Of a stretch of DNA of 64,000 bases, positions 15,201 through 63,002 are shown in pieces (positions within the stretch are counted from its first letter, which is position 1; the number at the start of each line of letters is the position of its first letter). The stretch spans positions 305 through 64,304 of IMG/VR virus record IMGVR_UViG_3300045988_183785. One strand, given 5' to 3'. Source of the DNA: a virus. The translations under genes and the position numbers were made by a program. Below the pieces are notes generated by a model. It saw nothing but the letters and a program-made list of their open reading frames with translations, made no database searches and had not been told where the DNA came from.

Positions 15201-17889
15201 CATCACCAAGTTCATCTCCGACGGGACCTCCGGTCCCGCTAAGTTCGAGGGCGGTGCAGAGTTCAAGTATTGGCTGCAGTCCGCCGGCTCTTACGAGAAC
15301 GCTAAGGATGACGAGCGCGGTATCCTGACGACCAACGACTTGGGCTACAGCGGCAAGTCCATCGAGCTGCCCTACGGCACCTATGTGGTGCATCAGACCA
15401 AGGCCGGCGATAAGGGGGCGGGGCTCGCGCCTGAGTTCACCGTTCTGGTCGGCGAGGTTGACCACGACCATCACGACTTGGCTGTCAACAACGGACCTAT
15501 TACCGCGTACCTGCGCGTTGTGAAGGTCGATGAGCTTGACGGCGAGGTCATTCCTTGGGGCGGCGCGAAGTTCCAGATTTACGACCCTGACGGGAACAAG
15601 GTGTCCCAGAAGGTCACTTACCCCACGGTAACTTATATTGATACATTCGAGACCAATGATGAGGGTTATTTTGTGACCCCGCTGGTTCTGCCTTACGGCG
15701 AGAACTATCATCTGGTCGAAATCGTACCCCCGAAGGGTTATGAGCTGATGGATACCCCGATTACCTTCAGCGTTACGCCCGATACCATTTCTCTGGATGC
15801 CGAGACCGGTCTGGTGACTGTGAATATCATCGCCGAGGACGAGGCGGTGACTCCCAAGGTCAAGACTACTGCAACCGACAAGGAAGGCAACAAGGAAATC
15901 GTTCCGTCCACCACCGTCACTATCGTCGATAAGGTGGAATGCACCGACGTTATCCCCAACAAGACCTATACGGTCGAGGGATATCTGGTGGTTAAGTCCA
16001 CCGGCGAGCCTCTGCTGGACGCCGAGGGTAATCGCATTACCGCCTCTAAGACCTTCAAGGCTGAAGCCGACTTCACTGGCTTTGTGGAGCTGGAGTTCAC
16101 CTTTGATGCGTCTCTGCTGGGTGGCGAGTCCATCGTTGTTTTCGAGGACCTGAAGCGCGGAAACCGTGTCGTTGCTACCCATGCTGACATCAACGATGTT
16201 GACCAGACCGTTGTAATCCTGAACCCCAAGATTGGCACCACGGCCAAGAACGCTGTTGGCGGCAAGGAGTTCATGCCTCTGGCTGATGTGATTCTGGTGG
16301 ATACCATCTCCTACGAGAATATGCCCGTGGGTAAGGAGTTCATCGCTATCGGTACGCTGATGGATAAGGCCACCGGCAAGCCCGTTACCGATGCCAACGG
16401 CGACCCCGTTACCTCTTACAAGGTGTTCACTCCCGAAGCTGCCACTGGTACGGTGGATGTGAAGTTCGTCTTTGACGCTTCCAAGCTGGCCGGCAAGTCT
16501 CTGGTGGTATTCGAGCGTGTGTATCTGGGCAACGAGATTGTTCCCGGCGACTCCAATAAACCCGTGTTTGTGAGTCACGAGGATATCAACGATGAGGGGC
16601 AGACCGTCACCATCGGCGTTCCCGAAATCGGTACAAAGGCCGTGAACAACGCCACCAATGGCAAGACCCTCGACCCCGAAGCCCGCGCTGAAATCAAGGA
16701 TACCGTGTCCTATAAGGGCCTGATTGCTGGAGAGAAGTACACTGTCTCCGGTAAGCTGATGAACAAGGCCACCAACGAGCCCCTGAAGGATAAGGACGGA
16801 AAGGAAATCACCTCCTCCGTTACCTTCACCGCTGAGGCGTCCAATGGCACCGTTGACGTGTTCTTCGTGCTCGATGCATCTCTGCTGCGTGGTCAGTCTA
16901 TCGTTGTATTCGAGTCCCTACAGTACAAGGACATTGAAATCGCAGTTCATGCCGACATCAACGATGTTGACCAGACTGTGACTGTCAATAGCCCTGAAAT
17001 CAAGACCACCGCTAAGAACGCTGCTGATGGCAAGAAGGAATTCTGGGCCTACAGCAAGGTCGAGCTGGTCGATACCGTGTCCTATAAGGGCCTGATTGCC
17101 GGCAATAAGTACACCGTAATCGGTAAGCTGATGGACAAGGCGACAGGTGAGCCTGTTCTGGGCCGCAACAACAAGGAAATCACCGCCACTACCGAGTTCG
17201 AGGCCAAATCCTCTGACGGCACTGTGGATGTGAGCTTCGTGTTTGATGCATCCATTCTGGGCGGTAAGACGCTGGTCGTGTTCGAGACCCTGACCCGCAA
17301 TGGCACTACGGTAGCGACTCACGCCGACATCAACGATGTTGACCAGACTGTGACCATCAAGCGCATCCCGACCTATTCCGGTCCGAGCATTTCCACCACC
17401 GCTACCTTCGATGGCAAGGAGAAGAAGAACTCCGTTGCTGGTAAGAACGTGAAAATCGTGGACACCGTCAACTATACCGGCCTGACTGTGGGCAAGACCT
17501 ACGTGCTGGTTGGTACGCTGATGGATAAGGATTCCGGTGTTGCCCTCAAGGACAATAAGGGGAATCTGGTAACGGCTACCACGACCTTTACGCCCAAGTC
17601 CTCCAACGGGGCTGTGAATGTTACGTTCAAGTTCGACGCATCCAAGCTGAAGGACCATGCGCTCGTGGTGTTCGAGACTCTGTATGAGGGTCGTGCTGAG
17701 GCGGGTAATGTCATTGCTACCCACAACGACCTGATGGACGGTGCCCAGACGGTGTATTTCCGCGACAGTGTCCAGACTGGCGATGAGGGCATCGGCCTGT
17801 GGGCCATGCTGGGTACGTTCAGTACCATTGCTTGCTGCGGCACTGCGGTGTTCATGTTCCGCCGCAAGAAGGAGTATGGCGCCGAGTAA
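12223..17889 (+). CDS. Thioester-domain (TQXA-type) surface adhesin with Cna-B-like repeats, 5 Thr-Gln ester-bond-type stalk repeats and a C-terminal sorting signal. It is a paralog of the upstream adhesin.
   Basis: RBS AAGGAGA, then a signal peptide MKHKKVRGVVAMLLTLVMMVGMLPTSVYASD. The N-terminal domain has Cys in YCIEPHKG and Gln in WCATQEVIWE, which is the Cys-Gln pair and TQxA-like motif of TED adhesins. There are about 8 KTSEDG Cna-B-like repeats, then VaFE/ester repeats with HADINDVDQTV motifs. The C-terminus reads SVQTGDEG, then a hydrophobic TM stretch, then FRRKKEYGAE. Confidence 0.85.
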   Translation: MKHKKVRGVVAMLLTLVMMVGMLPTSVYASDADGGGNSVVIKSVSDPVMVGKTGSGDGDLVYNATEDTKNPDDSKKSDSTVVEDEVKGDADKKDTSKESSSENGQAAPGEAKSETGKDESVKSSVTEEGLQDPYAGENTPVNVSILYGSAQNAPRAISAMRAPARASGTITTGDDMSYNSKWMAEFAPYSSAVVKYFNGQPAYCIEPHKGAPGAGTSVDASAYWGDQRVRLALAYGYGGADDSTLLWYAGNGTYAWCATQEVIWEIVGGYSDLSDLFVGPGHAYDPEVAVPIKAAHDYIWEKINQQSIIPSFAVYTPFDSRKDIELSWDGSSWTATKTDTNRVLRNFDDFEFGLSGVSTFQSGNNLTITATPEAAKSMLNGIASYASEGNVIDPDSVNAYLLVAGGSKQDCVALNGWPDPVTAYVRAKVTKTTGDLNIAKTSEDGKVGGVSFTVTGPNGYSKTVTTGANGKIAITDLQPGTYTVTENTPGNYIPTQPQSVNIAIGDFKTVNFSNVLKKGVVKVTKTSEDGQIAGHTFRLSGTSAAGTAVNMTAVTDANGVATFNNVPVGNNYKLEEINTAAKYVVPAVQAGVVVEYNTSTPAQFENKLARGNLKITKTSEDGFVAGMTFRLTGTSISGAAVNETASTDENGVVMFREILIGNNYTVQEINTAERYVVPAVQNNVTVTLNNTTSLNFHNKLARGAVEVKKTSEDGKVAGITFRLSGTAINGETVDMTAVTNDAGVATFNNVLIGNNYSVEEVNTAAKYIVPAVTNGVKVTLDNTTPVNVYNKLKRGDLRVTKTSEDGMVEGITFRLHGTAISGDAVDLTATTNADGIAIFKDVLIGNNYTLEEVDTAVKYVIPAVQTGLVVEFQKVTDTAVTNVLKKWKVTVEKTDAETGNIPRGDGVFEGAVYGLYKGDELVKEYVIGSDGKFTTDEYICGYDYTIREIKAPTGYQIDEGVYRVGAEPENYRIEHNVAPQITSVEVINRGTFAITKFISDGTSGPAKFEGGAEFKYWLQSAGSYENAKDDERGILTTNDLGYSGKSIELPYGTYVVHQTKAGDKGAGLAPEFTVLVGEVDHDHHDLAVNNGPITAYLRVVKVDELDGEVIPWGGAKFQIYDPDGNKVSQKVTYPTVTYIDTFETNDEGYFVTPLVLPYGENYHLVEIVPPKGYELMDTPITFSVTPDTISLDAETGLVTVNIIAEDEAVTPKVKTTATDKEGNKEIVPSTTVTIVDKVECTDVIPNKTYTVEGYLVVKSTGEPLLDAEGNRITASKTFKAEADFTGFVELEFTFDASLLGGESIVVFEDLKRGNRVVATHADINDVDQTVVILNPKIGTTAKNAVGGKEFMPLADVILVDTISYENMPVGKEFIAIGTLMDKATGKPVTDANGDPVTSYKVFTPEAATGTVDVKFVFDASKLAGKSLVVFERVYLGNEIVPGDSNKPVFVSHEDINDEGQTVTIGVPEIGTKAVNNATNGKTLDPEARAEIKDTVSYKGLIAGEKYTVSGKLMNKATNEPLKDKDGKEITSSVTFTAEASNGTVDVFFVLDASLLRGQSIVVFESLQYKDIEIAVHADINDVDQTVTVNSPEIKTTAKNAADGKKEFWAYSKVELVDTVSYKGLIAGNKYTVIGKLMDKATGEPVLGRNNKEITATTEFEAKSSDGTVDVSFVFDASILGGKTLVVFETLTRNGTTVATHADINDVDQTVTIKRIPTYSGPSISTTATFDGKEKKNSVAGKNVKIVDTVNYTGLTVGKTYVLVGTLMDKDSGVALKDNKGNLVTATTTFTPKSSNGAVNVTFKFDASKLKDHALVVFETLYEGRAEAGNVIATHNDLMDGAQTVYFRDSVQTGDEGIGLWAMLGTFSTIACCGTAVFMFRRKKEYGAE

Positions 17890-36391: not shown

Positions 36392-37765
36392 TTAGAATTT
36401 GAGTTGCTCTTCAGTTATTTTTGCGATTTGCGGCAACTTGCGAGCTTCTTCGGTACGGAGCTGGAACATATCCAGCTCATAATTGCCGAGCCGAACGCGG
36501 TCAAGCCCATCAGCGTCTTTGAAAATATCAAAGAGTGCTTTGACGCGCAGCGCATCCTGCCTATCCCTCCAGTGTTCCGAGATGAAGTCGTAGCCTTCCT
36601 TATCGGGGCGGCAGTGATACTCCATCAGAAACAGAGTGATGGGGTCCGTATCAGGATATGCTTCCTGCAGCATCCTTGCGCTCTCGCCACCGTGGGTATT
36701 ATCCTCGGAATCGCTACGTCTGCCTGTGTCGTGATACAGTGCAGCCTCAATCAGAATTTCTTTGTCTTCCAAGTCCAGACCCTTCATATATGCCAGCAGC
36801 ATACACATGAATAGGACACGACCAGCGTGAGCCTTTCCATGCAGTTTGCCTGCCATCTGGAATGGAACGGCGTCATAGTCAGCAGTCTTCTGATAGAGCC
36901 AGAAGTCGTCTATCGCACCGTCATCCGCTGCCTCGTTGAGCCAGTCGATACCATAGAAGGGGAAGTCTTCAACCTCCTTGATGTCATCGGGAGATACAAT
37001 AACTTCAGCCTCCACGCCTTCGAAATACTCAATGACAGAGGCTTTTTCGACTGTAGCCCGATATACCTTTGCATGGTCAGACGGAAAGCGCGTGGCGAAG
37101 AACACGGCTACGGCAGGGTCCAGCGTCCAAGAGAACGCTTCCTCCAGACTTGCGCTTTCATCGCCGGCGCCACGGTAAACCGTCAGTGTGTCAGGATACT
37201 TCTTGAGCACCTTCTCTGTTGCCTGAACCTGTTCCGGCGTTTTCATGCTTTTGAGCTTCAGTATACCATCCCGTCCGAGTGCGGAGCATCCGTAATCGGA
37301 AAAGGGGTAGACATTGTAGAACAGTTTGTAAGCACCATCAAAGCCCTCATCAACGAGTTTCTTCAGATACTCTATCCGCATCCGGTCGTTGAGTGCCGTG
37401 ATGATGAAGTTACAGTTGCCGGAGGCAATTTTCTCCTTCAGTTGCTCAACAGCCCCTCGGATTTCAGGCGTTTTATCTTCACCGTCGGCTGCCATTGTAA
37501 GACTGTTGCAGGGGAATATGACCTTATCCTTATCCCAGTAATAAAACGGGGTAAAGCCGCAGCCGTAGTAGAGGTTCTCAATGATGTCGTCGGTTAGATG
37601 AAACTTCTTCCGCAGTTCATCGGCTGTATAGGGCGCCATATATCCGTTCCGACTGGCAACTGCCTTTGATTTCTCTGATGTGACAGATGTAACAGGGAGA
37701 AGGTTGTTGAACGATTCAACATTGCGGGACTTCATCACCACATCAGCGATGTTCATACTTTTCAA
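36392..37765 (-). CDS. HD-domain phosphohydrolase fused to an N-terminal domain of unknown function (about 280 aa)
   Basis: The C-terminal region has the motifs H...HGKAHAGRV, YHDTGRR, THGGESA and DADGLDRV, which give the H..HD..H..H..D pattern of the HD superfamily. It is the last gene of the AAA/vWA operon. Confidence 0.6.
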   Translation of the reverse strand: MKSMNIADVVMKSRNVESFNNLLPVTSVTSEKSKAVASRNGYMAPYTADELRKKFHLTDDIIENLYYGCGFTPFYYWDKDKVIFPCNSLTMAADGEDKTPEIRGAVEQLKEKIASGNCNFIITALNDRMRIEYLKKLVDEGFDGAYKLFYNVYPFSDYGCSALGRDGILKLKSMKTPEQVQATEKVLKKYPDTLTVYRGAGDESASLEEAFSWTLDPAVAVFFATRFPSDHAKVYRATVEKASVIEYFEGVEAEVIVSPDDIKEVEDFPFYGIDWLNEAADDGAIDDFWLYQKTADYDAVPFQMAGKLHGKAHAGRVLFMCMLLAYMKGLDLEDKEILIEAALYHDTGRRSDSEDNTHGGESARMLQEAYPDTDPITLFLMEYHCRPDKEGYDFISEHWRDRQDALRVKALFDIFKDADGLDRVRLGNYELDMFQLRTEEARKLPQIAKITEEQLKF

Positions 37766-37952
37766 TCTCCTTCAATAATTTTTCTATCACATCTGCAGCA
37801 TCCGCTTCAATGTTGTTGATGTTACAGGCACCGTCCACATCACGGTATTTGCACCGCTTATCGCCGCAGCCGAAGTTGTCTTCAGCATCCGTGCCGTAGC
37901 AGCGGAGCTTCTTGATAACTCTCAGCGCATCGCTTTTCAGCTTTGATGTCAT
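37743..37952 (-). CDS. Small Cys-containing protein (69 aa)
   Basis: The ORF overlaps the start of the HD gene. Contains CYGTD...CGDKRCKYRDVDGAC. Confidence 0.3.
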   Translation of the reverse strand: MTSKLKSDALRVIKKLRCYGTDAEDNFGCGDKRCKYRDVDGACNINNIEADAADVIEKLLKEIEKYEHR

Positions 37953-38046
37953 TATGTTTTCTCCTTTCTACAACACCGACTTCTTTTTGCATATCATTAT
38001 ATATTCTTATATGCAGAAACTCAACTCCTTCCTGCAGCAAACAGAA

Positions 38047-38283
38047 TCAAAGGGTCTCATCGGCAATGACTTCCTTGGAAACCGTGTTATTCCACATCCG
38101 CACACTCTTCCTGATACTGCTGGCATAGATTTTTGTGCCGGCATAGGTCTTCAGGTTTGCGTGGAACGGAAACCCCTTTTTGCAACTCTGACATACAGCC
38201 TTACAATCGGGCTTGCCACAGCGGGAATACAGCTTGATTTTGCCGCCACACACGGGGCAGGGAGCAACGTAACCTAAATCCAT
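38047..38283 (-). CDS. Zinc-ribbon protein (78 aa)
   Basis: ATG preceded by AGGAGA. Contains CPVCGG...CGKPDCKAVCQSC. Confidence 0.4.
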   Translation of the reverse strand: MDLGYVAPCPVCGGKIKLYSRCGKPDCKAVCQSCKKGFPFHANLKTYAGTKIYASSIRKSVRMWNNTVSKEVIADETL

Positions 38284-38337
38284 AGTATTATCTCCTTTCA
38301 AAGAGAGCCACCCCAAAGGGTGGCTCTTTAATTGTTG

Positions 38338-40560
38338 TTAGACCTTCAGCCGCTTCTTGACGATTTTGACCATTGCCTTTGGAAAGGTGGAAAGGTCAGT
38401 AATGTCAAGGAACTGGTCGCCGTAAATCTTCTTGAGGTACTCTTTGTCGTCGCCGATAGCTGCTGCGACAATCTCAACACCGCGCCGGCGATTGCGGGCT
38501 ACGATGTCTTTGATGTCCTTCGCCGCAGAATCTCCACCATAGGAATCATCATTCGGCTTACCATCCGAAATGATAATGAGGAGCTTCGTGCGCTCAGGTC
38601 TCGCATTCAGCAGGTTCGCAACGACCTCCAGTGCTGCACCGTCACGGTTACAGCCGCCAGTGGAGAGCTTGGCAAGACGGTACTTGTCACGCTTACCGGC
38701 CTTCAGGAAGTCTGTGTAGACGAACAGGTTGACCCTACCATGCATGGTCACATTGTGACCGTACACAGCGACAGGAACATGAACACGCTCTGCAAAGTCA
38801 TGCAGGAGCATGGTAGCCTTCATAGCGGCGCCCATGCGCTGTCCGTACATCGAGCCAGACTGGTCAACCAGCACGGAAACTGCCATATCGGGCAGGTCCT
38901 GCGGCAACTTTGTGTCGCTGAAGAACCGGCAATCCGGACGCCACATTTCGCTTGCAACGATATCTCTACCGTACATTCGGTTTCTGCGGACATCGCCGTC
39001 CTGCAGGTCCTTCAACTCCTGCTGCATCAACTTTGCCAGACGCTTGGAATACTGCGACACATCCTCCATCATTTCACCGTAGAGCTTGATGTTGGAAGGT
39101 GTTACTTCAACCTCGCGTTTGACGTCGATGCTATGGCCCTTGTGCGTAGAGCTACGGTCCATGATGTCAACATCAGCGATGATTTGAGACTTCAAATCCT
39201 GCTCCATCTGTGCTTCGGCCATGTTTCCGGCAACGGAGGAAATAATGGTCTGCAGGACATTCGCCAACATACTGTCGGCTTGCTCCTGCTTTCCGTTTTT
39301 ATCCTGTCCATCGCCGCTCTTGCCGGCCACAGCAGCGGGGATGTTGCCCTTATTGGCATCATTCCCGCCGGAACCACTACCGCTGTCGTTTTTCTTACCC
39401 TTCTTCTTGTCGGCAGACTGGGCATCCTTGGTAGCTTGCTTGGCTACGTTGGATGCCTTCTGGTTCTGAGGCATCTGAGAACCACCTCCATTCTGTGCGC
39501 CCTGAGCAATTTGCTGGAGCACCTGCTGAATGGCATTGGCGCTGGGCTGGGAGATACCTCCGCCGCCCTGCTGGTTCTGACTGCCTTGACCACCGCTGGA
39601 AGCGGGCTGTCCTTGCTGCCCGCCCTGACCGTTCTGGTCGGAGCCGGACTGCTGACCTTGCCCCTGCTGGCCTTGGCCTGCCTGAGAGCTCTGCTGCTTG
39701 TCACACTTCTCAATCGCGTCCTTAATGTAAGGCCACATAAAGAGAAGCATCACATTGATTTGGGAATACAGCTCCTTCGGGTTATCCGTGTTGGTGGCAA
39801 GCTCAATGGTCTGCGAGATGTCTGTCAGCTTTTTGGCGTACTCATTGGTATAGAGCGTCTGCTCATCCGCAACGAGAATTTCACCAAATCGTGCGAACTG
39901 GAGAACGAGGCTTGTCATAATAGACAGCGGCTCCTTCTTGTTGTTCGTATAGCCTTCCAGCGTGTGAAGCTGCCCCTGAAGGGAAGATGCTGCCATCTCA
40001 ATACCACGAGCGACAATGCCGCCGTAGTAGTCGCTCATACGTTCCTCGTCGTGTGCGTCGATGATGCAGTTGACGAGTTCGTCTCGCAGCGACTTGAACA
40101 CCTTGCGGTATTCAGGATGCTTCAGCGCCTCCTTCATCTCATCCAGCTCTGTCTCATCGTCCGGTTCAGGCATCCGTCCATAGAGTGTGCCGTTCTCTTC
40201 CAGTTCCTTGTCTGCCAGCGCATCGGCGCGAAAGTCGTGGAATCGGATGTGGGCCAACTCGTGATAGACAATACCCATGACCGTTGCGAATCGGGAGGAG
40301 GGGAGCTTATACCATGTGATGACACTGTTTGCCGTATTCTGACAAAGACTATTCCCGTCAGTACAGGCGGTGATGTCGGATTTGGGGTTATGCATCAGAG
40401 AAACGGAGATGTGCTTGTCAAGGTCTTTCGTCATCGAATCGACCGTTGCCTGCACATGACTCCGAAACGCTTCACTGGTGTAGATGTCAGCATCTGTGAG
40501 TTTTTCGCTCATTTCCTTGGCGCCTACGCGGATTTGCCTCCAGATAGATTTCTGGTCCAT
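38338..40560 (-). CDS. vWA-domain protein with an N-terminal HExxH putative metallopeptidase domain and a Q/G-rich low-complexity linker (CobT/DUF2201-like architecture)
   Basis: YHELAHIRFHD carries the HExxH motif. The central region is Q/G-rich (QGQQGQGQQSGSDQNGQGGQQGQ). The C-terminal vWA has a MIDAS motif VLVDQSGSM...GGCNRDGAAL...LIIISDGKPND. Confidence 0.7.
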   Translation of the reverse strand: MDQKSIWRQIRVGAKEMSEKLTDADIYTSEAFRSHVQATVDSMTKDLDKHISVSLMHNPKSDITACTDGNSLCQNTANSVITWYKLPSSRFATVMGIVYHELAHIRFHDFRADALADKELEENGTLYGRMPEPDDETELDEMKEALKHPEYRKVFKSLRDELVNCIIDAHDEERMSDYYGGIVARGIEMAASSLQGQLHTLEGYTNNKKEPLSIMTSLVLQFARFGEILVADEQTLYTNEYAKKLTDISQTIELATNTDNPKELYSQINVMLLFMWPYIKDAIEKCDKQQSSQAGQGQQGQGQQSGSDQNGQGGQQGQPASSGGQGSQNQQGGGGISQPSANAIQQVLQQIAQGAQNGGGSQMPQNQKASNVAKQATKDAQSADKKKGKKNDSGSGSGGNDANKGNIPAAVAGKSGDGQDKNGKQEQADSMLANVLQTIISSVAGNMAEAQMEQDLKSQIIADVDIMDRSSTHKGHSIDVKREVEVTPSNIKLYGEMMEDVSQYSKRLAKLMQQELKDLQDGDVRRNRMYGRDIVASEMWRPDCRFFSDTKLPQDLPDMAVSVLVDQSGSMYGQRMGAAMKATMLLHDFAERVHVPVAVYGHNVTMHGRVNLFVYTDFLKAGKRDKYRLAKLSTGGCNRDGAALEVVANLLNARPERTKLLIIISDGKPNDDSYGGDSAAKDIKDIVARNRRRGVEIVAAAIGDDKEYLKKIYGDQFLDITDLSTFPKAMVKIVKKRLKV

Positions 40561-40577
40561 GCGTCAACTCTCCTTTC

Positions 40578-40997
40578 TTACTTTTTCCGGTTCTTGAAAA
40601 TTTCAACGGTAAATTCAAGGCAGAAGTCTGCCACCTGCAGGCGGTCGGTGGAATCTCCGGTAAAAATCGGACTGATTCCGTTTGCTGCCGCCATCCGGTT
40701 AATGACATTGCAGCTATTGCAAGCAACGTCATGGTAGCATTTACGGAGCCTGTCGATGGTCTGCAATGCGTCGCGGAGGTCTTCGCCCTCAAGACGGTTG
40801 TGAGCAATGATGATGCGGGTCTCACCCATATCAACTGTGTTCACATAGTCGAGGAAGGCAGAGCATCGCTCTTCAAGGCTCTCAAGCAGCTTATCTGCAT
40901 TGGGAATACCCTTCTTGACGCATTCGCCGACCTTGGCGCAGAGCGCGTTGTAATTTTCACGATTGAAAAAGTTGATGTTGTTATAGTTCTGAGTCAT
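40578..40997 (-). CDS. Hypothetical protein (139 aa) lying between the AAA+ and vWA genes
   Basis: ATG preceded by AGGAGAAAAAAA. No known domain. Confidence 0.45.
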   Translation of the reverse strand: MTQNYNNINFFNRENYNALCAKVGECVKKGIPNADKLLESLEERCSAFLDYVNTVDMGETRIIIAHNRLEGEDLRDALQTIDRLRKCYHDVACNSCNVINRMAAANGISPIFTGDSTDRLQVADFCLEFTVEIFKNRKK

Positions 40998-41073
40998 GGT
41001 GTTTTTTTCTCCTTTCTTTCTTATCCGAAAAGAAAGAAAAGAGGCACCATGCCTCTTTTCTCCTTTCGGACCC

Positions 41074-42939
41074 TTATGCCACCTTGCTGATGACTTGTGC
41101 TGCGTTGGAACGAATTTCGTTCTGTTCAACGGGGTCGTTCGTGCATTTCGAGATGAGGCACGTGTCAATATACTTTTCAAGATTCGCCAGATAGCGGTCA
41201 TCACACTGCACGCAGCACACGAGGGATTCGAGCTCACAGATGGTGCAAGAACCCTCGGTGATTTCCTTGTCCGCACAGTAGCTGCGAATCTGCTCGTACA
41301 CATCGTAGAGCGCGTACAGGGTTCTGTCATCGCGACTCCAGCCGGTGTTGTATTTGATGCGCTCCAGCATGGCTTTCTTCTCGATTTCCGTACTGTCGAA
41401 AATCATGCGGCAGCGACGGAGAACCGACTGGTCAATGGGACGGCAGGAAGCATATCCGACGTTATCTGTGAATACCACAACGGCGTCCTTCTGCCGATAG
41501 GTAAATCCACCATCTACCAGAGGAATCATAGCTCCCGGCAAATCGTACTGGTTCAGCGCGACCATAACACCGGAATCCTTGATTCGGCTGACCTCCTGAA
41601 TCTCGCAGATGTATCCGCGAGAAACAGCCTTCACAAAAGCGGATTCAACCACTTTCACGGGGGAAGTGCAGCCGGCACGTGCAACCAACAGCTCGGAATA
41701 CTTTGCAAAGCACTCCTCGGAGGTAATGCCCGTGCCATCTTCTCCTGTCATGTTGTTCCACGCGGATTCGGGGTCGAAGGAAATTTCCTCAAAGGAGGGG
41801 AGTTCTCCTCGTGCCGCATCCACAGGATTGCAGGGAACGAACTCGGAAATCAAGTCCTTTGCCAACATATCAGTATGACAGGTCAGCTCCAAACGGGGGG
41901 TGTGCAGGATGCACGCCAACACCTTCGTACCGGTAGACTTGCCGTAACCGGTAATGCCGCGCCACAGGAAGTTGCGGAACGGAACGCGCATATTAGACGT
42001 TGCGACGATTTTATCTGCGATTTCGATTACCTCCGGCTGGACCTTGAAGTCGTCGTCAAAGGTGGGAATCAGCAGTTCTTCGTCTTGCGTCCACGTATGT
42101 GTTTTTGTCCATGCAGCATATCTGAGTTTGGCATCCTTCACGGTCATGCTCTTTTCAGACGAGCCGGTGCTTGAGGCCATGGTTCCACCGATAATGGTCG
42201 GGGAGCCAACGATGACGGTGCCATTAAAGGCTCCACTGTTTACCTTCTGCCGGGTCAGGGTATCCAGATTGCCGTTCTGGATGTTGAGAGGGATTTTTCC
42301 GTCTTCACAACCGTAGTAGAGAATGTCGCTGAATGTGTAGAGGAAGTCTCTTGCATCAGGAATCTCATCCATATGGTTGCCCCAGTCGGCGGGGTACTTG
42401 GCACTCAGGTCAAGGATGTCCGTCTGTACCTGCTTGAGCTCCACATTGTTTGCGACAACAGCCAGTTCAGGTGCGCCGTAATACGTTGCGAGGGTGAACG
42501 GGGTCATCGCAAGGAGAGCACCGCTCAGGTCGAGAGTGTCCGACTCCGAGCCAATAGACGGGGTTCCCGCCCACTGTCCGGAAGGTGCCGCTGACGCAGC
42601 CGCCAGCTTACCTACTGCCGGCGCATTCGTTTGAATGACCGTCTTGTAGGTGAAAAGATACGTCCTCGATTCCGTGGCGTCTCGATATTCCGCGCTCCAC
42701 AGGTTATCAGAAACCTGCAAAAGAGCGTAGTCATCGACAAAATTGGGAATTCCCAGATACGCCAAAAGAGCTCTGGTCGCATAGTTGTGAAGGGTAGAAT
42801 ACCCCTTTGCAGAGGGGCGCTTGGGAGCACTCCATTTGGACACCGTACTTGTGTTTCTATTGGGAAGCGAGTTCAGCCCGTACGGAAGGGTGCTGATATC
42901 GAACCCTTTCTTCCCTCGGAAGAGTACACAGTTTGCCAT
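41074..42939 (-). CDS. MoxR/CbbQ/CobS-like AAA+ ATPase with an N-terminal extension of about 330 aa
   Basis: Walker A motif RGITGYGKSTGTKVLACIL. Walker-B-like motif YICEIQEVSRIKDSGVMVALNQ aligns with the MoxR motif LLADEINRAPPKTQSALLEAMQ. First gene of the operon driven by module R1. Confidence 0.65.
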   Translation of the reverse strand: MANCVLFRGKKGFDISTLPYGLNSLPNRNTSTVSKWSAPKRPSAKGYSTLHNYATRALLAYLGIPNFVDDYALLQVSDNLWSAEYRDATESRTYLFTYKTVIQTNAPAVGKLAAASAAPSGQWAGTPSIGSESDTLDLSGALLAMTPFTLATYYGAPELAVVANNVELKQVQTDILDLSAKYPADWGNHMDEIPDARDFLYTFSDILYYGCEDGKIPLNIQNGNLDTLTRQKVNSGAFNGTVIVGSPTIIGGTMASSTGSSEKSMTVKDAKLRYAAWTKTHTWTQDEELLIPTFDDDFKVQPEVIEIADKIVATSNMRVPFRNFLWRGITGYGKSTGTKVLACILHTPRLELTCHTDMLAKDLISEFVPCNPVDAARGELPSFEEISFDPESAWNNMTGEDGTGITSEECFAKYSELLVARAGCTSPVKVVESAFVKAVSRGYICEIQEVSRIKDSGVMVALNQYDLPGAMIPLVDGGFTYRQKDAVVVFTDNVGYASCRPIDQSVLRRCRMIFDSTEIEKKAMLERIKYNTGWSRDDRTLYALYDVYEQIRSYCADKEITEGSCTICELESLVCCVQCDDRYLANLEKYIDTCLISKCTNDPVEQNEIRSNAAQVISKVA

Positions 42940-42999: not shown

Positions 43000-43200
43000 A
43001 TATATAGAAAAAGACAATCACTGCCCGAAAAGGGAAGTGATTGTCTGAATTTATGATGTGACTTGAAAAACGGAGATAAAACTCCTTATAAAAATATCTT
43101 CGTAATTATACTATTATACTACCACGTTTCGCTATTTTGTCAACAGCAGCAACGTAAAAAAAGAAGCTCCCGAAGGAGCTTCTTTTGAAATTTAGTTTTT
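43000..43200 (-). promoter_or_regulatory. Repeat module R1: terminator of the upstream operon, then promoter (TTGACA-N19-TATAAT-AG-TATAAT), conserved leader and a terminator-like attenuator hairpin
   Basis: Sequence shared with 48935-49125, 52925-53112 and 55965-56160. Read on the minus strand it is TTGACAaaatagcgaaacgtggtagTATAATagTATAATtacgaagatatttttataAGGAGttttatCTCC...AGACAATCACT-loop-AGTGATTGTCT-TTTTTCTATATA. Confidence 0.6.
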
Positions 43201-43880: not shown

Positions 43881-44927
43881 TTAAATGGCGCAAGTGAATG
43901 TGTCATTGCAGCCAGACTTTTCCATCTCTTTTTCCCATGCCTCAGTAATCTTGTTGCTGGGAGCGCCGGATGCCTTCTTCCATATAATAGCATCACCGCT
44001 GACTTCCAGCGCATCATCGCAAAAGACAAGCGAATTAAAGGTATGCTCGTCTTCATAGAGTGCCAGATGCATCGGGTTCAGCATGACTGCGCCTTCCGTC
44101 AGCAGCATACGGGCCCAGAGCTGGTATTCAAGCGACCAGCGGGACGTTTCTGCCGGCAGGTCGCCATACAGCTCGTCCAACTTTCGCAAGATGGAGGCGC
44201 AAATCACGCAGCCTGCGGGAGTTCCGTGATGCGTACCGAGATACGGCAGCTTGGCGAAGAATAGGGGACTCTCAGCATACTCGTCTTCCGCATAGGCGTA
44301 AAACGTTAGCTCCATGTCCGCTGCTGCGAAGAACCGGTCGGGAAGGATATCCTTCACTTTACAGTTGCTCCAGACAACATCATCCGAAAGGAATCTGAAG
44401 CCAAGAGGCTCCGTCCTATCAGGTGTGAGGTACTTCCGTGCCATATGTCGGACGAGGGCAACGAAACCCAGCTCATGCCGCAGCGTCGGCACATCGTCAA
44501 AGATTCTGTGAATGTTTGCCCACAGCTTCTCTTCGCTTCGTTCCACGCACTCGAAAAAGAGTTTGCAGGACGACCCGTGTGTGAAAGCGACACTCAGGGT
44601 CACGAGCCAAGGTGCGAAATCATCAGGCTTCAGAACATACTCTTTCTGCCCAGTACAGGCGACCGGCACAAACCAACCACCCGCACGAGCTTCGCTATAC
44701 GAAGCGTCCTCCGCAGCATAGGCGGTTGTTCTGAAGGCATCGTCGGTGTCCTTATCAGGAATATCAATGGCATCGCCCTTGCAGATATACTTGAAGGGGA
44801 CATACATTTCCACCTCTCTAATGCCGTCGCCATCTGCATCATCCGTATCACGGCAGTAACGCACGATATGGACCAATACGTTCTCGTCGCAATGCAGCTT
44901 TCGCTTGTTCGAAATCAGATTATCCAT
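43881..44927 (-). CDS. Hypothetical protein, the downstream copy of a tandem paralog pair
   Basis: 348 aa. The C-terminal half is about 70% identical to the product of 44945-45982, for example ELTFYAYAEDEYAESPLFFAKLPYLG and LEYQLWARMLLTEGAVMLNP. Confidence 0.45.
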   Translation of the reverse strand: MDNLISNKRKLHCDENVLVHIVRYCRDTDDADGDGIREVEMYVPFKYICKGDAIDIPDKDTDDAFRTTAYAAEDASYSEARAGGWFVPVACTGQKEYVLKPDDFAPWLVTLSVAFTHGSSCKLFFECVERSEEKLWANIHRIFDDVPTLRHELGFVALVRHMARKYLTPDRTEPLGFRFLSDDVVWSNCKVKDILPDRFFAAADMELTFYAYAEDEYAESPLFFAKLPYLGTHHGTPAGCVICASILRKLDELYGDLPAETSRWSLEYQLWARMLLTEGAVMLNPMHLALYEDEHTFNSLVFCDDALEVSGDAIIWKKASGAPSNKITEAWEKEMEKSGCNDTFTCAI

Positions 44928-44944
44928 GTTTTCTCCTTTCAACG

Positions 44945-45982
44945 TCAGCCAGTTACGATGCAGGTAAAAGCCTCATCGCCGGACTCACTCATGTCATTCT
45001 CCCACGCCTCGGCGATTACGCTGATAGGTGTTTTGACAGCCTTTGCCCACGCAATACCGTCACCGCTGTCTTTCAGCATTTTATTACCGAAAGCCAGCGT
45101 TTTGAATTCGTAGGCGCAGTCGGGGAGGTCGAGGTGCTTCGGATTCAGCATGACCGCACCTTCTGCCAGCAGCATACGAGCCCAAAGCTGATACTCCAGA
45201 GCCCATTTTGTTGTGTCTTCAGGCAGGTCGCCGTACATCTCATCCAGCTTCTGCAGCAGTTCTGCGATTGCAGCACGTCCCTCAGGCTTGTTGTACCGTT
45301 CGCCCAAATCGGGCAGTTTGGCAAAGAACAGGGGGGACGCTGAATACTCGCCGTCGGAATAGGCGAAGAACGTCAGCTCCATGGCAGGGGAATTGAAGAA
45401 CTTCTCAGAGAGAATGTCCTTCACACCGCACTGGGTGAAGTTTACGCTGTCCGAAATGAGGCGGAAGCCGAACTGCTCCGTCCACTCGCGGGTAAGGTCT
45501 CTCTTCGCCATGGCCGCAACCGTGTCAGAATGCCGCCCGCAGGTGTTTTCCGGAGCCACACGCGGCTCGAATCTCGCCCGCATATTGTTGACGATAGCTT
45601 CAGTATCGTTGAGGACACTCTCAAAAAGCAGCCGGCAGCCGCGCCAATCTCCTTCGTCGGTGACGGAAAGGCTGATGATATAGGGCGCAAAATCTGCAGG
45701 ATGGAGAATCAATACCGTCTTGCCGGCATCCTCAGTGACCTTAACAGACCAGCCGCACTCATTCCCGTATCGCTCGTCCTTCTCGAAAGAAGCATTTGTG
45801 AGAACGGAAAAGTGCAGTTCGTGACCGTCGCTGAAGACGCTCACAGAATCGCTCTTGCGGATGTCCTTGAAAGGAACGAATGTGGTCTCGAATCTGTCGT
45901 GCTTAGGGTTGTTGCGGGAGACCTTAACCAGCGTGTTCTCGTCGCAGAAAGCTGCGGCGGCTTTGATAGATACATTGTTCAT
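44945..45982 (-). CDS. Hypothetical protein, the upstream copy of a tandem paralog pair
   Basis: ATG preceded by AGGAGAAAAAT. Shares ELTFFAYSDGEYSASPLFFAKLPDLG and LEYQLWARMLLAEGAVMLNP with the downstream copy. Confidence 0.45.
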   Translation of the reverse strand: MNNVSIKAAAAFCDENTLVKVSRNNPKHDRFETTFVPFKDIRKSDSVSVFSDGHELHFSVLTNASFEKDERYGNECGWSVKVTEDAGKTVLILHPADFAPYIISLSVTDEGDWRGCRLLFESVLNDTEAIVNNMRARFEPRVAPENTCGRHSDTVAAMAKRDLTREWTEQFGFRLISDSVNFTQCGVKDILSEKFFNSPAMELTFFAYSDGEYSASPLFFAKLPDLGERYNKPEGRAAIAELLQKLDEMYGDLPEDTTKWALEYQLWARMLLAEGAVMLNPKHLDLPDCAYEFKTLAFGNKMLKDSGDGIAWAKAVKTPISVIAEAWENDMSESGDEAFTCIVTG

Positions 45983-46047
45983 ATTTTTCTCCTTTCTTTT
46001 TTGGGAAAGCAGGGGAGAGGCAGAGTGCCTCTCCCGCTGGCTTTGAT

Positions 46048-46215
46048 TTAACCGGTTATGACCGCCACAATAACCAAAACAATGGTGAGCGCAATAGTAC
46101 CAAAGGCAGCCGGAAGCATTTCTGGCTGGTCTGTTTTTTTTGCGGCTATGACTGAGACGACCATTGCGGCGATGATGAGAACGACATAGGCTATAAACAA
46201 GGGGTTCGTCAGCAT
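46048..46215 (-). CDS. Small membrane protein (55 aa, two TM helices)
   Basis: ATG with GGAGAAGGA upstream. Fully hydrophobic. Confidence 0.35.
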   Translation of the reverse strand: MLTNPLFIAYVVLIIAAMVVSVIAAKKTDQPEMLPAAFGTIALTIVLVIVAVITG

Positions 46216-46235
46216 TTTGAACACGTCCTTCTCCG

Positions 46236-46397
46236 TTAATACCACCGAACAAGTGCGAACAGTTCCACCATAATAACGCCCACAGAAACGCTGCAGACGA
46301 TTGGCGGCAAGAGGTCCTGTGTGTCCAGTCTCCTTATGCCAAGGAATATGCCGCACATCACGAAAATGGTCAGAGCGAAGTAAAGAATAATCGACAT
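46236..46397 (-). CDS. Small membrane protein (53 aa, two TM helices)
   Basis: Hydrophobic ORF with a weak RBS. Confidence 0.3.
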   Translation of the reverse strand: MSIILYFALTIFVMCGIFLGIRRLDTQDLLPPIVCSVSVGVIMVELFALVRWY

Positions 46398-54100: not shown

Positions 54101-54370
54101 TTACATCTCGCCATCCTCGGCAGCGGTTATAATACCGAATCTGAGGTTGTTGTTGATGTCGTAGATACTTAATCCGCTATCAAAGTCCTTGCGGAGCTGC
54201 GTCGCAGCGGCCTCTACGGAGTCTTCGCCGTACTCAAACGTCTCGGACTCGACGCAGGTTGCCACAAGCTCCTTCAGCTTTGCGCGGGAAGTCGTCGCAG
54301 AAACCAGACGCATAGAGTCTGTTGCTTTCCAAGCGTCACAGGCAAACACGATGAAGATAGGATTACTCAT
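54101..54370 (-). CDS. Hypothetical small protein (89 aa) immediately downstream of the MazF-like gene
   Basis: ATG at MSNPIFIVF. It overlaps the stop of the MazF-like gene by 8 nt. Confidence 0.4.
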   Translation of the reverse strand: MSNPIFIVFACDAWKATDSMRLVSATTSRAKLKELVATCVESETFEYGEDSVEAAATQLRKDFDSGLSIYDINNNLRFGIITAAEDGEM

Positions 54371-54941
54371 TTTCGGCTTGCTCCTTTCTTCTTCCAACGG
54401 TGGCTGCGGGGTACGGTGTGGCCCGCTTGTTGTTGCTGTCCATGATTCGCATAACATGGACAAGCATCTCGGAATATGCCCTGTGCATGGTTTCATACCG
54501 CGCACGCCATGTATTATCATCATTGTCGTTCACGCGAGCACTCAGCCCCATGCTGTAGTACAGCGCGGCGTCGATGTCTACCAGCTCCGCTTCAGTCAGG
54601 TGGCAGATATAGGCTCCCAGCTCATTGACAGAAACTGCCATCGGCTGCTCGCACAGTGCTGTGCTGGGGCGGCTCGTGCTCGTGATGAGTACATGGGAGG
54701 GCTGCTGCATCTTTGGAGATGATGTCGTAAATACGACCTCCACTACACTGCTGTAGCGGTTCAGGTCATCCGAAGATACAACGATTGCGGGACGATGCCC
54801 TCTGATAACAGAGCTATTGGAAGGATGTCCGTCTTTATCGCGGAACTGGCTTCCTTCCGGGGCCCAAGGGGAAAAGATTTCGATTTCTTTCGCATTGACC
54901 CAAAAAACATCGCCCCTGCGGATGTTTCCATTTCTACCCAT
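54363..54941 (-). CDS. MazF/PemK-family toxin-like protein with a C-terminal extension of about 70 aa
   Basis: RGDVFWVNAKE...GHRPAIVVSSDDLNRYSSVVEVVFTTSS matches the PemK/MazF signature (RGDIY.VDF...RPAVVIS...N.....V.VVP.TS). Total length 192 aa, against about 110 aa for canonical members. Confidence 0.6.
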   Translation of the reverse strand: MGRNGNIRRGDVFWVNAKEIEIFSPWAPEGSQFRDKDGHPSNSSVIRGHRPAIVVSSDDLNRYSSVVEVVFTTSSPKMQQPSHVLITSTSRPSTALCEQPMAVSVNELGAYICHLTEAELVDIDAALYYSMGLSARVNDNDDNTWRARYETMHRAYSEMLVHVMRIMDSNNKRATPYPAATVGRRKEQAENE

Positions 54942-61555: not shown

Positions 61556-61943
61556 AGGACACCGTAAAGTGTGTCCTTTTTCTTTATCTGCTTGTTTGTC
61601 CTGTGTTTTTCGGACAACATCGGCGAGCGCAAAAGTCGCCTGAAGCGTGAGAAGCGAGCTGCCTGCACCTGTTTTGCGGGCGGTGGCGTGATAAGGGTGA
61701 AACTCTGCGCTTTCAGTAGCCGAAAGCAGATGAGCAAAAGTCTCCGCGAACGCCTGCATGGTTCGCGGGACAAGGGAAGCCGGAAAAATAAGTAAACGCG
61801 GGCCGAGCGCAGAGGTTGTTGGCGTATTCCAGACGTGGGTGCTGCCTTTTATGCTGTGCTTGTTTGCGTGGGGTCCGGTGTTCTCGCAGTCTGGATGGTT
61901 GCTGCGAGAGGTGCCAAAACTTATTGCGAAAGGACGGAGTTCT

Positions 61944-63002
61944 ATGCCAACTACATTTCAAGCGTTTAAGTATCGCATTTACCCGACTGATGAGCAGGTC
62001 GAAATCATTGAAAAGACTTTCAAGTGCTGCCGGTTTGTGTGGAACCATTTCCTTGAGCGAACCTCCAAAATCTATGACCGTCGGCAGGAAAAGATGACGA
62101 CCTTCGACTGTATGAAGGTTCTCACGGAGATGCGGGAGCGCTGGCCTTGGCTTGCGGACTGCGGCTGTACGGCAGAGAGATATGCCATCATTGATTTGTT
62201 TGAGGCGCGAAAGGCGTTCTTCCGCCGCATTAAAGCGGGGGAGAAGCCCGGTTATCCCAAATTTAAGGGCGCGTCCCATCCGACACAGAGTTTTACGACC
62301 GCTGGTACTATCTATGTGACGGACGATTACATTCAGGTTCCGTTTGGAGGACAGTATCAGAAAATCAACAAGCTCAGGCGAGGGACGGGGCGCCCCATCG
62401 AAGGGTCTCCCCGCGAGGTCACTATTTCTCGGTCTGCTACCGGAAAATACTGGGCATCTGTCTGCTGTAAAGTAGAGCGAGACACGCTGCCTATTGTGGA
62501 CGGCGAGGTGGGAATCAGTCTCGGCCTGAAGGAGTTGGCTATTGACAGCAACGGCGTTCACTATGAGAACCCGAAGCATCTGAGCAAGTCTGCAAAGCGG
62601 TTGGCACGTGAGCAGCGGCGTCTATCCCGCAAGAAGAAGGGCTCTGTCAACTACGAGAAGCAGCGGCGCAAGGTAGCCGGCGTCCATGAGCATATTGCCA
62701 ATCAGCGCAATGACTACCGGCATAAAATCAGCCGTGAACTTGTCAACGCGAACCAGCTTATTGCTGTTGAGAAGGTGGCCGTTAAGCCCTTAGTTGAGGG
62801 CAATGAGCAGGCTAAAAGCATCCTCGATGCCGGCTGGTCTGAACTTACCGGTATGATAAAGTATAAGGCGGACTGGGCTGGACGCACTCTGGTGGACGTA
62901 GATACCGCCACCGTAGCACCGGAAGCCAAGCATGATGAGGCACTGGCACAGGTCGTGCTGTCCGAAGGTCAGCGCATGGCTTCCGAGCAGAAGCCTGCCT
63001 AA
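61944..63002 (+). CDS. tnpB: TnpB homolog (IS200/IS605 OrfB family) with a substituted RuvC-I Asp and a C-terminal truncation that removes the zinc finger and RuvC-III. It is either a TldR-like nuclease-dead RNA-guided protein or a decaying tnpB.
   Basis: The N-terminus MPTTFQAFKYRIYPTDEQ is typical of TnpB. The RuvC-I motif reads VGISLGLKELAIDSNG where GIDLG is expected, so the catalytic D is replaced by S. The RuvC-II Glu is retained in LIAVEKVAV. The protein ends at ...EYKADWAGRTLVDVD plus a short tail. Canonical TnpB continues from here with a CxxC...CxxC zinc finger and the RuvC-III Asp. No alternative frame restores these. Length 352 aa against about 400 for active TnpB. Confidence 0.7.
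   Translation: MPTTFQAFKYRIYPTDEQVEIIEKTFKCCRFVWNHFLERTSKIYDRRQEKMTTFDCMKVLTEMRERWPWLADCGCTAERYAIIDLFEARKAFFRRIKAGEKPGYPKFKGASHPTQSFTTAGTIYVTDDYIQVPFGGQYQKINKLRRGTGRPIEGSPREVTISRSATGKYWASVCCKVERDTLPIVDGEVGISLGLKELAIDSNGVHYENPKHLSKSAKRLAREQRRLSRKKKGSVNYEKQRRKVAGVHEHIANQRNDYRHKISRELVNANQLIAVEKVAVKPLVEGNEQAKSILDAGWSELTGMIKYKADWAGRTLVDVDTATVAPEAKHDEALAQVVLSEGQRMASEQKPA

Follow-up and report, generated by a model that had tools for sequence, protein, structure and literature searches.

What does a large mobile element of the gut gain from an AAA+ ATPase, a metallopeptidase-like vWA protein and an HD-domain enzyme encoded side by side, and do the six genes of this block act together? The block occupies positions 36392-42939 of the window, by which we mean the whole stretch analyzed here, 64,000 nucleotides (positions 305 to 64,304) of the IMG/VR virus record IMGVR_UViG_3300045988_183785. 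A preliminary description of this DNA listed six open reading frames (ORFs) there and took them for a candidate NTP-dependent conflict or defense system. The six ORFs, all on the minus strand and separated by short gaps, are real and lie exactly where they were listed; the single system was not supported. The conserved unit is a two-gene AAA+/vWA pair, and the other four genes are lineage-specific. The reading that we favor, at a probability of roughly 0.55, is that the pair constitutes an element-encoded, ATP-driven machine that remodels or processes some client.

This division emerged from a census of 42 loci with relatives of the AAA+ protein (24 in genomes and 18 in IMG/VR) and seven further loci from contig look-ups, using hidden Markov models of the six proteins. 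The full order of AAA+ protein, DUF3232 protein, vWA protein (hereafter the adaptor), zinc ribbon, 69-aa protein and 457-aa protein (hereafter ART-HD, for a putative ADP-ribosyltransferase (ART)-like region that precedes its HD domain) occurs only in 17 loci, those in which the AAA+ protein is at least 85% identical. By contrast, the vWA gene directly follows the AAA+ gene in all ~25 divergent Clostridia loci (31-40% identity) that have downstream DNA, and no homolog of the DUF3232, zinc-ribbon, 69-aa or ART-HD proteins was found within 10 kb of the pair in any of them. Gene-neighborhood conservation thus extends to distant relatives for the pair, whereas for the complete set it stays within one lineage. 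In the E. faecium sequence NZ_CP019972 (L001:8983-11211) the AAA+ and vWA modules are fused into a single 742-aa protein, WP_002286072.1. Adjacent in every relative with downstream sequence and fused in this one, the two proteins form the functional pair that had been proposed. The E. faecium fusion itself has no HExxH domain and is preceded by a DUF6530 gene. The hosts of the AAA+ relatives are Clostridia throughout.

Only two kinds of third gene recur beside the pair. One is the DUF3232 gene, which separates the AAA+ and vWA genes in the present element lineage alone; the other, encoding a protein of ~250-280 aa, follows the vWA gene in nine of 22 divergent loci (Table 1) and specified a DUF4116 protein in all six that were scanned. 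The DUF4116 protein may be a client or a partner of the pair. The cargo varies even close to home, as the 85% sister lineage has an extra gene of ~1.1 kb between the zinc-ribbon and 69-aa genes, which encodes a Fic protein where annotated (348 aa, L002:14998-16044, with the matching position occupied in L041-L043, L045, L047 and L048). Cargo therefore turns over at this position.

These distributions bear on the proposal that all six genes serve as one NTP-dependent defense or abortive-infection system, whose AAA+/vWA-peptidase core would sense an invader and set free or activate the HD (and ART) effector. Such a role would suit the common strand and the terminators on both sides of the block, the frequent use of ART, HD and Fic domains as toxic effectors, the similarity of variable cargo beside a conserved NTPase core to effector swapping, and the frequency with which mobile elements carry defense genes. 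The would-be effectors, however, are missing from the divergent neighborhoods, and ART-HD family members in three independent elements (L009-L011) have no pair beside them. An internal hairpin and a separate promoter-like site, described below, divide core from cargo, and in phages and plasmids the pair resides among replication or early genes and is reported as part of the cyanophage core genome (PMC8651126). PADLOC (PADLOC-DB 2.0), run on the six proteins, gave no match for the AAA+, DUF3232, vWA, zinc-ribbon or 69-aa proteins and only PDC-S15 (E 0.028, ~30 residues) for the 457-aa protein. We consider a unified defense system distinctly unlikely.

On sequence grounds, the 621-aa protein was confirmed as an AAA+ ATPase of the CbbQ/NorQ/CobS (AAA_5/MoxR) class. 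The single sequence scored 19.2 bits against Pfam AAA_5, under the 22-bit cut-off, and no NCBIfam family matched it; a profile of 37 AAA+ sequences matched CbbQ/NorQ in the PDB with an E of 1.5e-4. The Walker A motif reads GITGYGKST and so contains the GYGKST first reported. In an alignment that took in CbbQ-type, CobS-type and plasmid relatives, K334 of Walker A, E449, N493 (sensor-1) and R509 are invariant, the arginine finger being R508/R509. The Walker B motif, described at first as MoxR-type, is so only in part and aligns as ICEIQE (residues 444-449; E446-x-Q448-E449): the catalytic glutamate is invariant, but the aspartate is replaced by glutamine across the whole clade, and likewise in the E. 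faecium fusion. The CobS-sized AAA+ module spans about residues 285-621, whereas the N-terminal ~280 residues are poorly conserved and match no family.

The adaptor (740 aa) consists of an N-domain (residues 1-295), a Q/G-rich linker (296-455) that is disordered in the model, a helical "shaft" segment at about residues 443-520 and, at 556-740, a C-terminal vWA domain whose metal ion-dependent adhesion site is termed MIDAS. The linker and vWA domain were thus read correctly from the start, and the MIDAS residues D566, S568, S570, N638 and D666 (D-x-S-x-S ... N ... D) are conserved. Pfam identified CobT_C and VWA in the adaptor, a PDB search returned CobT over the vWA domain at an E of 2.8e-6, and the structures closest to this domain are the MIDAS domain of Midasin and NorD bound to NorQ. 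The model places helices, three strands and ~9 helices in the N-domain, followed by the disordered linker, a helix-strand-helix unit and the vWA domain; its mean pLDDT (predicted local distance difference test) score is 69.5 overall and about 84 in the N-domain.

The HExxH motif, at residues 100-104 of the N-domain, is as real as first proposed. H100, E101, H104 and D168 are invariant among 43 diverse relatives (~30% identity), and N164 is nearly so, as are H170, D171 and E172 of the downstream D168/H170-D171-E172 cluster. A full-length query returned only 11 matches, presumably swamped by the Q/G linker in the word index; searched exhaustively on its own, the N-domain proved common to 506 clusters (50% identity), almost always within proteins of 650-800 aa. 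Remote relatives with an HExxH motif near the N-terminus include gp40 of the Vibrio phage ICP2 and proteins of pBpOF4-01 and of the C. difficile BI1 plasmid. The arrangement resembles that of M48 peptidases, in which HExxH lies on a helix behind a small sheet and is joined by an acidic ligand some 60-75 residues further on: H100, E101, H104 and E172 are in place, and the spacing and the model topology agree. In an hhalign comparison the block TA.T.G..I.lN ... HExxH paired with the M48 block of E. coli BepA (E 0.024, probability 2%), which weakly indicates M48 ancestry for this putative M48-like zincin domain; the comparison with E. coli HtpX was uninformative. Because the HExxH motif stays invariant and the acidic/His cluster behind it is retained, unlike in NorD-type adaptors, the adaptor is probably also a working metallopeptidase that cuts its client or itself.

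How might the two proteins work together? We infer the following scheme from the domain order, with the solved CobS-CobT complex as the analogy. A ring-forming ATPase of the CbbQ/NorQ/CobS class would work with a CobT-type adaptor as a two-gene machine. The M48-like N-domain of the adaptor would dock on the ATPase, the helical shaft preceding the vWA domain would enter the ring pore, and the MIDAS face of the vWA domain would hold the client protein, which ATP hydrolysis would then remodel. Cleavage of the client, or of the adaptor itself, may be part of the reaction, since the zinc-binding motif is invariant in the adaptor family. As a component of the element's own gene set, the pair would act during establishment, replication or assembly of the element. 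The DUF3232 protein, presumably co-transcribed with the pair in the present lineage, is a candidate client or regulator. Downstream would lie a swappable host-manipulation set comprising a Lar-like zinc ribbon, an optional Fic protein and a small Cys protein with the ART-HD enzyme. Of this picture, the domain identities, the pairing, the phyletic distribution and the modularity are observed, whereas the docking geometry, the peptidase activity, the client and the biological role are predicted.

Several observations weigh against this scheme. The replacement of the Walker B aspartate by glutamine in the entire clade means that ATPase activity is not guaranteed. The peptidase activity is predicted from motifs and a model of modest confidence; no Pfam peptidase family, M48 included, matches the N-domain, and its profile retrieved only Wss1 from the PDB, at an E of 0.62. 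No client of the pair was found. In addition, the nine loci with the third gene look chromosomal and have unrelated housekeeping flanks, so the pair is not exclusive to mobile elements. The window, finally, has no virion or type IV secretion system hallmarks in its 64 kb, and the element may be a phage, a plasmid or an integrative element.

That the window is part of a mobile element is clear from the matching contigs. IMG/VR contigs bearing the locus span 36-192 kb: those that match the AAA+ gene at 98-100% reach 172 kb, and those of the sister lineage (85%) reach 192 kb. In a metagenome assembly collection, one protein of the window has index entries in 1087 blocks. The window thus lies inside a gut mobile element of 170-190 kb. 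The preliminary view of a mobile-looking island agrees with this; the locus does not lie in a host defense island. The window also holds a TopB-type topoisomerase, a non-specific nuclease, flotillin and a RecG-like helicase. PHROG scans of ten neighboring proteins gave nothing, and the 6.5 kb region had no match when its nucleotides were compared with E. coli genomes, plasmids and phages.

The neighbors of the pair in other elements are suggestive of its setting. Relatives adjoin genes for SSB, ParA, an orphan N6/N4 methyltransferase, SUKH, DUF4314, YqaJ and RecD2-like proteins and, on one contig, Rep3 and TrbC pilin genes. A remote HExxH-vWA pair lies between the primase and DnaE genes of a C. 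difficile plasmid, with ParM also nearby, and the ICP2 pair (gp40/gp41) is near a primase gene. These contexts bear on two more specific proposals. The first is host takeover or counter-defense, in which the machine would seize and cleave a specific host protein, for instance one of immunity or replication control, alongside the Lar-like, Fic and ART-HD proteins, which would modify targets in the host early after entry. The co-location of the pair with a Lar-like ribbon, the sister-lineage Fic protein and an ART-like enzyme fits this idea, as do the SSB, methyltransferase, SUKH, DUF4314, YqaJ and RecD2-like neighbors, which are typical of early or leading-region sets; ARTs of phages and conjugative elements have been proposed as establishment factors (PMC5512222). 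Yet all of this evidence is contextual, the Lar match is weak, the chromosomal relatives, flanked by housekeeping genes and accompanied by DUF4116, are at odds with it and no target is known. We rate this proposal as unlikely, albeit likelier than defense, virion assembly or cobalt chelation.

The second proposal is that the pair is an assembly chaperone-protease of a large phage, folding or processing virion proteins, a function demonstrated for the MoxR-vWA pair that the archaeal virus ATV encodes. This role was proposed for the same domain pair in group 2.2 jumbo phages (PMC7824862), and the element is cataloged in IMG/VR at a size of 170-190 kb. However, no capsid, portal, terminase or tail protein was matched in the 64 kb window, the neighbors are replication or early genes rather than structural ones, and some relatives lie beside Rep3/TrbC pilin genes or in chromosomal-looking loci. 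We regard a role in virion assembly as very improbable.

The four cargo genes are of interest in their own right, and the ART-HD protein above all. It consists of a helical N-region, an ART-like domain at residues ~190-270 and, at residues 300-457, the classic HD domain already recognized at its C-terminus, in which the metal ligands of the superfamily (H...HD...H...D) and the HD fold are present and a phosphohydrolase or phosphodiesterase (PDE) activity is predicted. The part before the HD domain had been under-read. Its middle region contains the motifs Y197-R198-G199, S212-W213-T214 and E252-x-E254, which are conserved across 39 relatives. In the model, YRG falls on strand 1, SWT falls on strand 2, after which comes a helix, and a later strand begins with ExE. 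This layout is that of the R-S-E ADP-ribosyltransferases and is suggestive, short of proof. The best PDB match of a profile of the region is the type VI secretion system ART toxin TreX (E 0.048), with which the Arg and S-T-T motifs align, and one relative matches ADPrib_exo_Tox at an E of 0.033. Two fold searches with the ART-HD model gave only HD/PDE matches, with no ART fold among them, and a Pfam scan of the isolated region gave only noise (FRG at E 0.04). Taken together, these data make a fusion of an ADP-ribosyltransferase with an HD phosphodiesterase probable.

The ART-HD family comprises 105 retrieved homologs of stable length (~455 aa). Stand-alone versions of the ART-like domain (~160 aa), annotated as hypothetical, are found in Lysinibacillus phages and about 90 mycobacteriophages. 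The top structural matches of the HD part include the PDE domains of SidE/SdeD, which invites comparison with the SidE-family effectors of Legionella, fusions of a mono-ADP-ribosyltransferase and a PDE. The order is reversed here, with the ART before the HD domain, and neither a deubiquitinase domain nor a coiled-coil is present. Bacteria, moreover, are not known to have ubiquitin. The Alt, ModA and ModB ARTs of phage T4 offer a further comparison; the ART fold of the present protein was not confirmed by fold search and has the TreX match as its sole sequence support. In a bolder scenario, the pair would be an ATP-driven, target-specific protease that destroys a MIDAS-captured host protein, and ART-HD would be a SidE-like two-step enzyme that ADP-ribosylates a host target and then, through its HD phosphodiesterase, converts or cross-links the modification. 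We hold this combination to be rather unlikely. If true, it would mean a target-specific protease used by large gut elements and by many "cobST" phages and would overturn their standard annotation as cobalamin auxiliary genes. The ART-HD fusion is in any case a separate lead, a conserved family in which the annotation libraries used did not recognize the ART-like part, and the cargo, especially this probable fusion, is more original than the core and independent of it.

Of the smaller cargo, the 139-aa protein is a helical DUF3232 protein (Pfam E 3.6e-15) that also matches PDB 2rdc, an uncharacterized structure (E 2.9e-7). The two short zinc-ribbon or Cys proteins noted at the outset are borne out as a zinc ribbon and a 69-aa protein with four cysteines and no family match. 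The zinc ribbon (78 aa) matches PHROG 599, which is Lar-like, at an E of 4.2e-6 and Pfam Lar_restr_allev at 0.009, below the cut-off; these matches weakly suggest a Lar-like (restriction alleviation) protein.

The gene boundaries and transcription signals are collected in Table 1; for the whole unit, the promoter and terminator calls are consensus matches only. Two starts are probably the ATG codons downstream of the TTG codons first chosen. That of the zinc-ribbon gene, at 38283, is preferred because it has a good ribosome-binding site and the ortholog is 78 aa, and that of the ART-HD gene, 9 nt downstream of the TTG, because the closest orthologs begin there. The description of the six genes as one operon is plausible, given the single strand, the short gaps and the bracketing terminators, but the internal signals make the arrangement modular. 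The hairpin after the vWA gene has a GC-rich stem of 10 bp and a short U tract, with a folding energy of -21.4 kcal/mol (z -4.3), which none of 200 shuffled sequences equaled. It may be a partial terminator or a processing site and attenuate read-through into the cargo genes. Together with the promoter-like site before the 69-aa gene, it suggests that a core unit (AAA+, DUF3232 and vWA) is separated from a downstream unit, in which the overlap of the last two genes suggests translational coupling. An 801-aa plus-strand ORF at 38332-40737 was rejected as a gene: it runs antisense to the well-supported vWA gene, has no support of its own and is a shadow ORF.

Table 1 Genes and predicted signals of the block, neighboring features of the window and loci with a third gene
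Feature	Position	Strand	Length	Remarks
AAA+ ATPase gene	41074-42939	-	621 aa
DUF3232 gene	40578-40997	-	139 aa
HExxH/linker/vWA adaptor gene	38338-40560	-	740 aa
Zinc-ribbon gene	38047-38316; 38047-38283	-	89 aa; 78 aa	From TTG; from ATG (probable start)
Four-Cys protein gene	37743-37952	-	69 aa	Overlaps the next gene (36392-37765)
ART-like/HD protein gene	36392-37765	-	457 aa; 454 aa	From TTG; from ATG (probable start)
Upstream boundary	43116-43186	-		Terminator-like hairpin 43186-43159, then sigma-70-like promoter 43143-43116 (TTGACA, 16 nt spacer, TG, TAGTAT; consensus scan)
Terminator-like hairpin	36387-36358	-		Strong; 13 bp stem and T run, directly after the last gene
Internal hairpin	38302-38329	-		Between the vWA stop codon and the zinc-ribbon gene
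Promoter-like site before the 69-aa gene	38024-37996	-		TTGAGT-17-TATAAT
Giant surface protein	7-10341	+	3444 aa	TQ (T-Q ester) and SpaA repeats
Giant surface protein	12223-17889	+	1888 aa	TQ (T-Q ester) and SpaA repeats; thioester domain
Tandem paralog	43881-44942	-		No family match
Tandem paralog	44945-46252	-		No family match
PemK/MazF-type toxin gene	54363-54941	-		Coordinates inferred by matching annotated locus L060
IS605 OrfB (TnpB-like) gene	61758-63002	+		Coordinates inferred by matching annotated locus L060
Large serine recombinase gene	L060:16020-17597			~6 kb past the right end of the window
Third gene after the vWA gene	L006:14096-14854, L021, L023-L026, L028, L029, L032			Lachnospiraceae, Eubacterium, Oscillospiraceae

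Elsewhere in the window, two tandem paralogs lie directly upstream of the terminator-like hairpin and promoter that precede the block. Near the left end, two giant surface proteins look like a pair of element-borne covalent adhesins. The PemK toxin, the IS605 OrfB protein and the serine recombinase beyond the right end are further hallmarks of a mobile element.

Is the pair a new system? The preliminary description did not recognize the combination; its core, however, has been described twice. In group 2.2 jumbo phages, a MoxR AAA+ protein was noted together with a vWA protein that has a metallopeptidase at its N-terminus, and a role in virion assembly was proposed (Iyer et al. 2021, PMC7824862), and a viral "cobST" two-gene cluster was proposed to boost cobalamin synthesis (Liu et al. 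2021, PMC8651126). The present pair has all the features of this type, namely adjacent AAA+ and vWA genes, an N-terminal HExxH motif, a C-terminal MIDAS and carriage on a mobile element, and it shares with both descriptions (ICP2 gp40/gp41 was checked) a function that is experimentally unsolved. It differs in gene order, the AAA+ gene being first here and the vWA gene first in ICP2, and in the extra ~280-aa N-region of the AAA+ protein, the Walker B glutamine, the inserted DUF3232 gene and the gut Clostridia as hosts. With the phage examples the adaptor shares a low identity of about 24-31%, measured over the vWA domain alone.

The best mechanistic template is the CobS-CobT(-CobN) complex (PDB 9uka). 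In CobT, an M48C-like N-domain (one helix, then a sheet of three strands and eight helices) binds the small AAA+ subdomain; a disordered linker of ~90 residues is present, and a strand-helix-helix shaft, which precedes the vWA domain, reaches into the CobS ring, while the MIDAS side (D422, S424, S426, N518 and D546) faces the client CobN (bioRxiv 10.64898/2026.07.21.739949). The order of these elements, the D-S-S-N-D MIDAS and a CobS-sized AAA+ module are common to our pair. Does this make it an auxiliary cobaltochelatase, a viral CobST that hijacks host CobN to raise cobalamin synthesis, as hypothesized (PMC8651126)? The CobT-like overall architecture and the CobT_C and CobT matches of the vWA domain would agree with such a role. 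Against it, the adaptor scores 20.8 bits with TIGR01651, the CobT equivalog, for which the cut-off is 759.05, the AAA+ protein matches no CobS equivalog, the N-domain profile fails to match solved CobT sequences, and neither cobN nor other cob genes occur in the 64 kb of the window or in any of 22 divergent neighborhoods. Moreover, the hosts are strictly anaerobic gut Clostridia, and such organisms would use the anaerobic cobalt-insertion route. We consider this explanation scarcely credible. Maturation pathways of the NorQ-NorD or CbbQ-CbbO type fare no better: no nor or Rubisco client genes were found in the window or in the relatives' neighborhoods examined, and HExxH is retained here. The lack of client genes in 64 kb and the TIGR01651 score rule out a housekeeping chelatase or Nor/Cbb maturase, an identity that would have undermined the preliminary proposal. 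Separately, an Ensifer plasmid locus (L057) that we considered as a true CobT proved to be a CbbQ/NorD-type pair, whose NorD/CbbO-type protein has no HExxH motif and no match to the N-domain profile.

MoxR-vWA cores have also been proposed for ternary conflict systems (Kaur et al. 2020, PMC7159879), the precedent behind the original defense proposal. The MoxR-class ATPase and vWA domain as a proposed ATP-driven switch are shared, and a peptidase can be attached in those systems as well. Their third protein is a VMAP, iSTAND, FtsH or beta-propeller protein, their effectors are C-terminal to the vWA domain, and they are enriched in multicellular bacteria (PMC7159879). By contrast, the vWA domain is itself C-terminal here, the pair is hosted by gut Clostridia and their mobile elements, and none of these third components was seen (for VMAP, for which the libraries had no model, judged from architecture). 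In its architecture the core differs from the ternary-conflict type.

Such pairs are common in phages, plasmids and some gut Clostridia and are routinely annotated as cobS/cobT without functional test. The locus described here, with its strict metallopeptidase motif, its lack of CobN, its anaerobic hosts and the replication and early gene contexts of its relatives, speaks against the cobalamin label. Its core represents a variant form of a mobile-element module that is already known but functionally unsolved, set apart by the AAA+ N-extension, the Walker B glutamine, the DUF3232 insertion and its clostridial hosts, and the abundance of the element in human gut metagenomes would make it a practical system in which to find the client of the pair.

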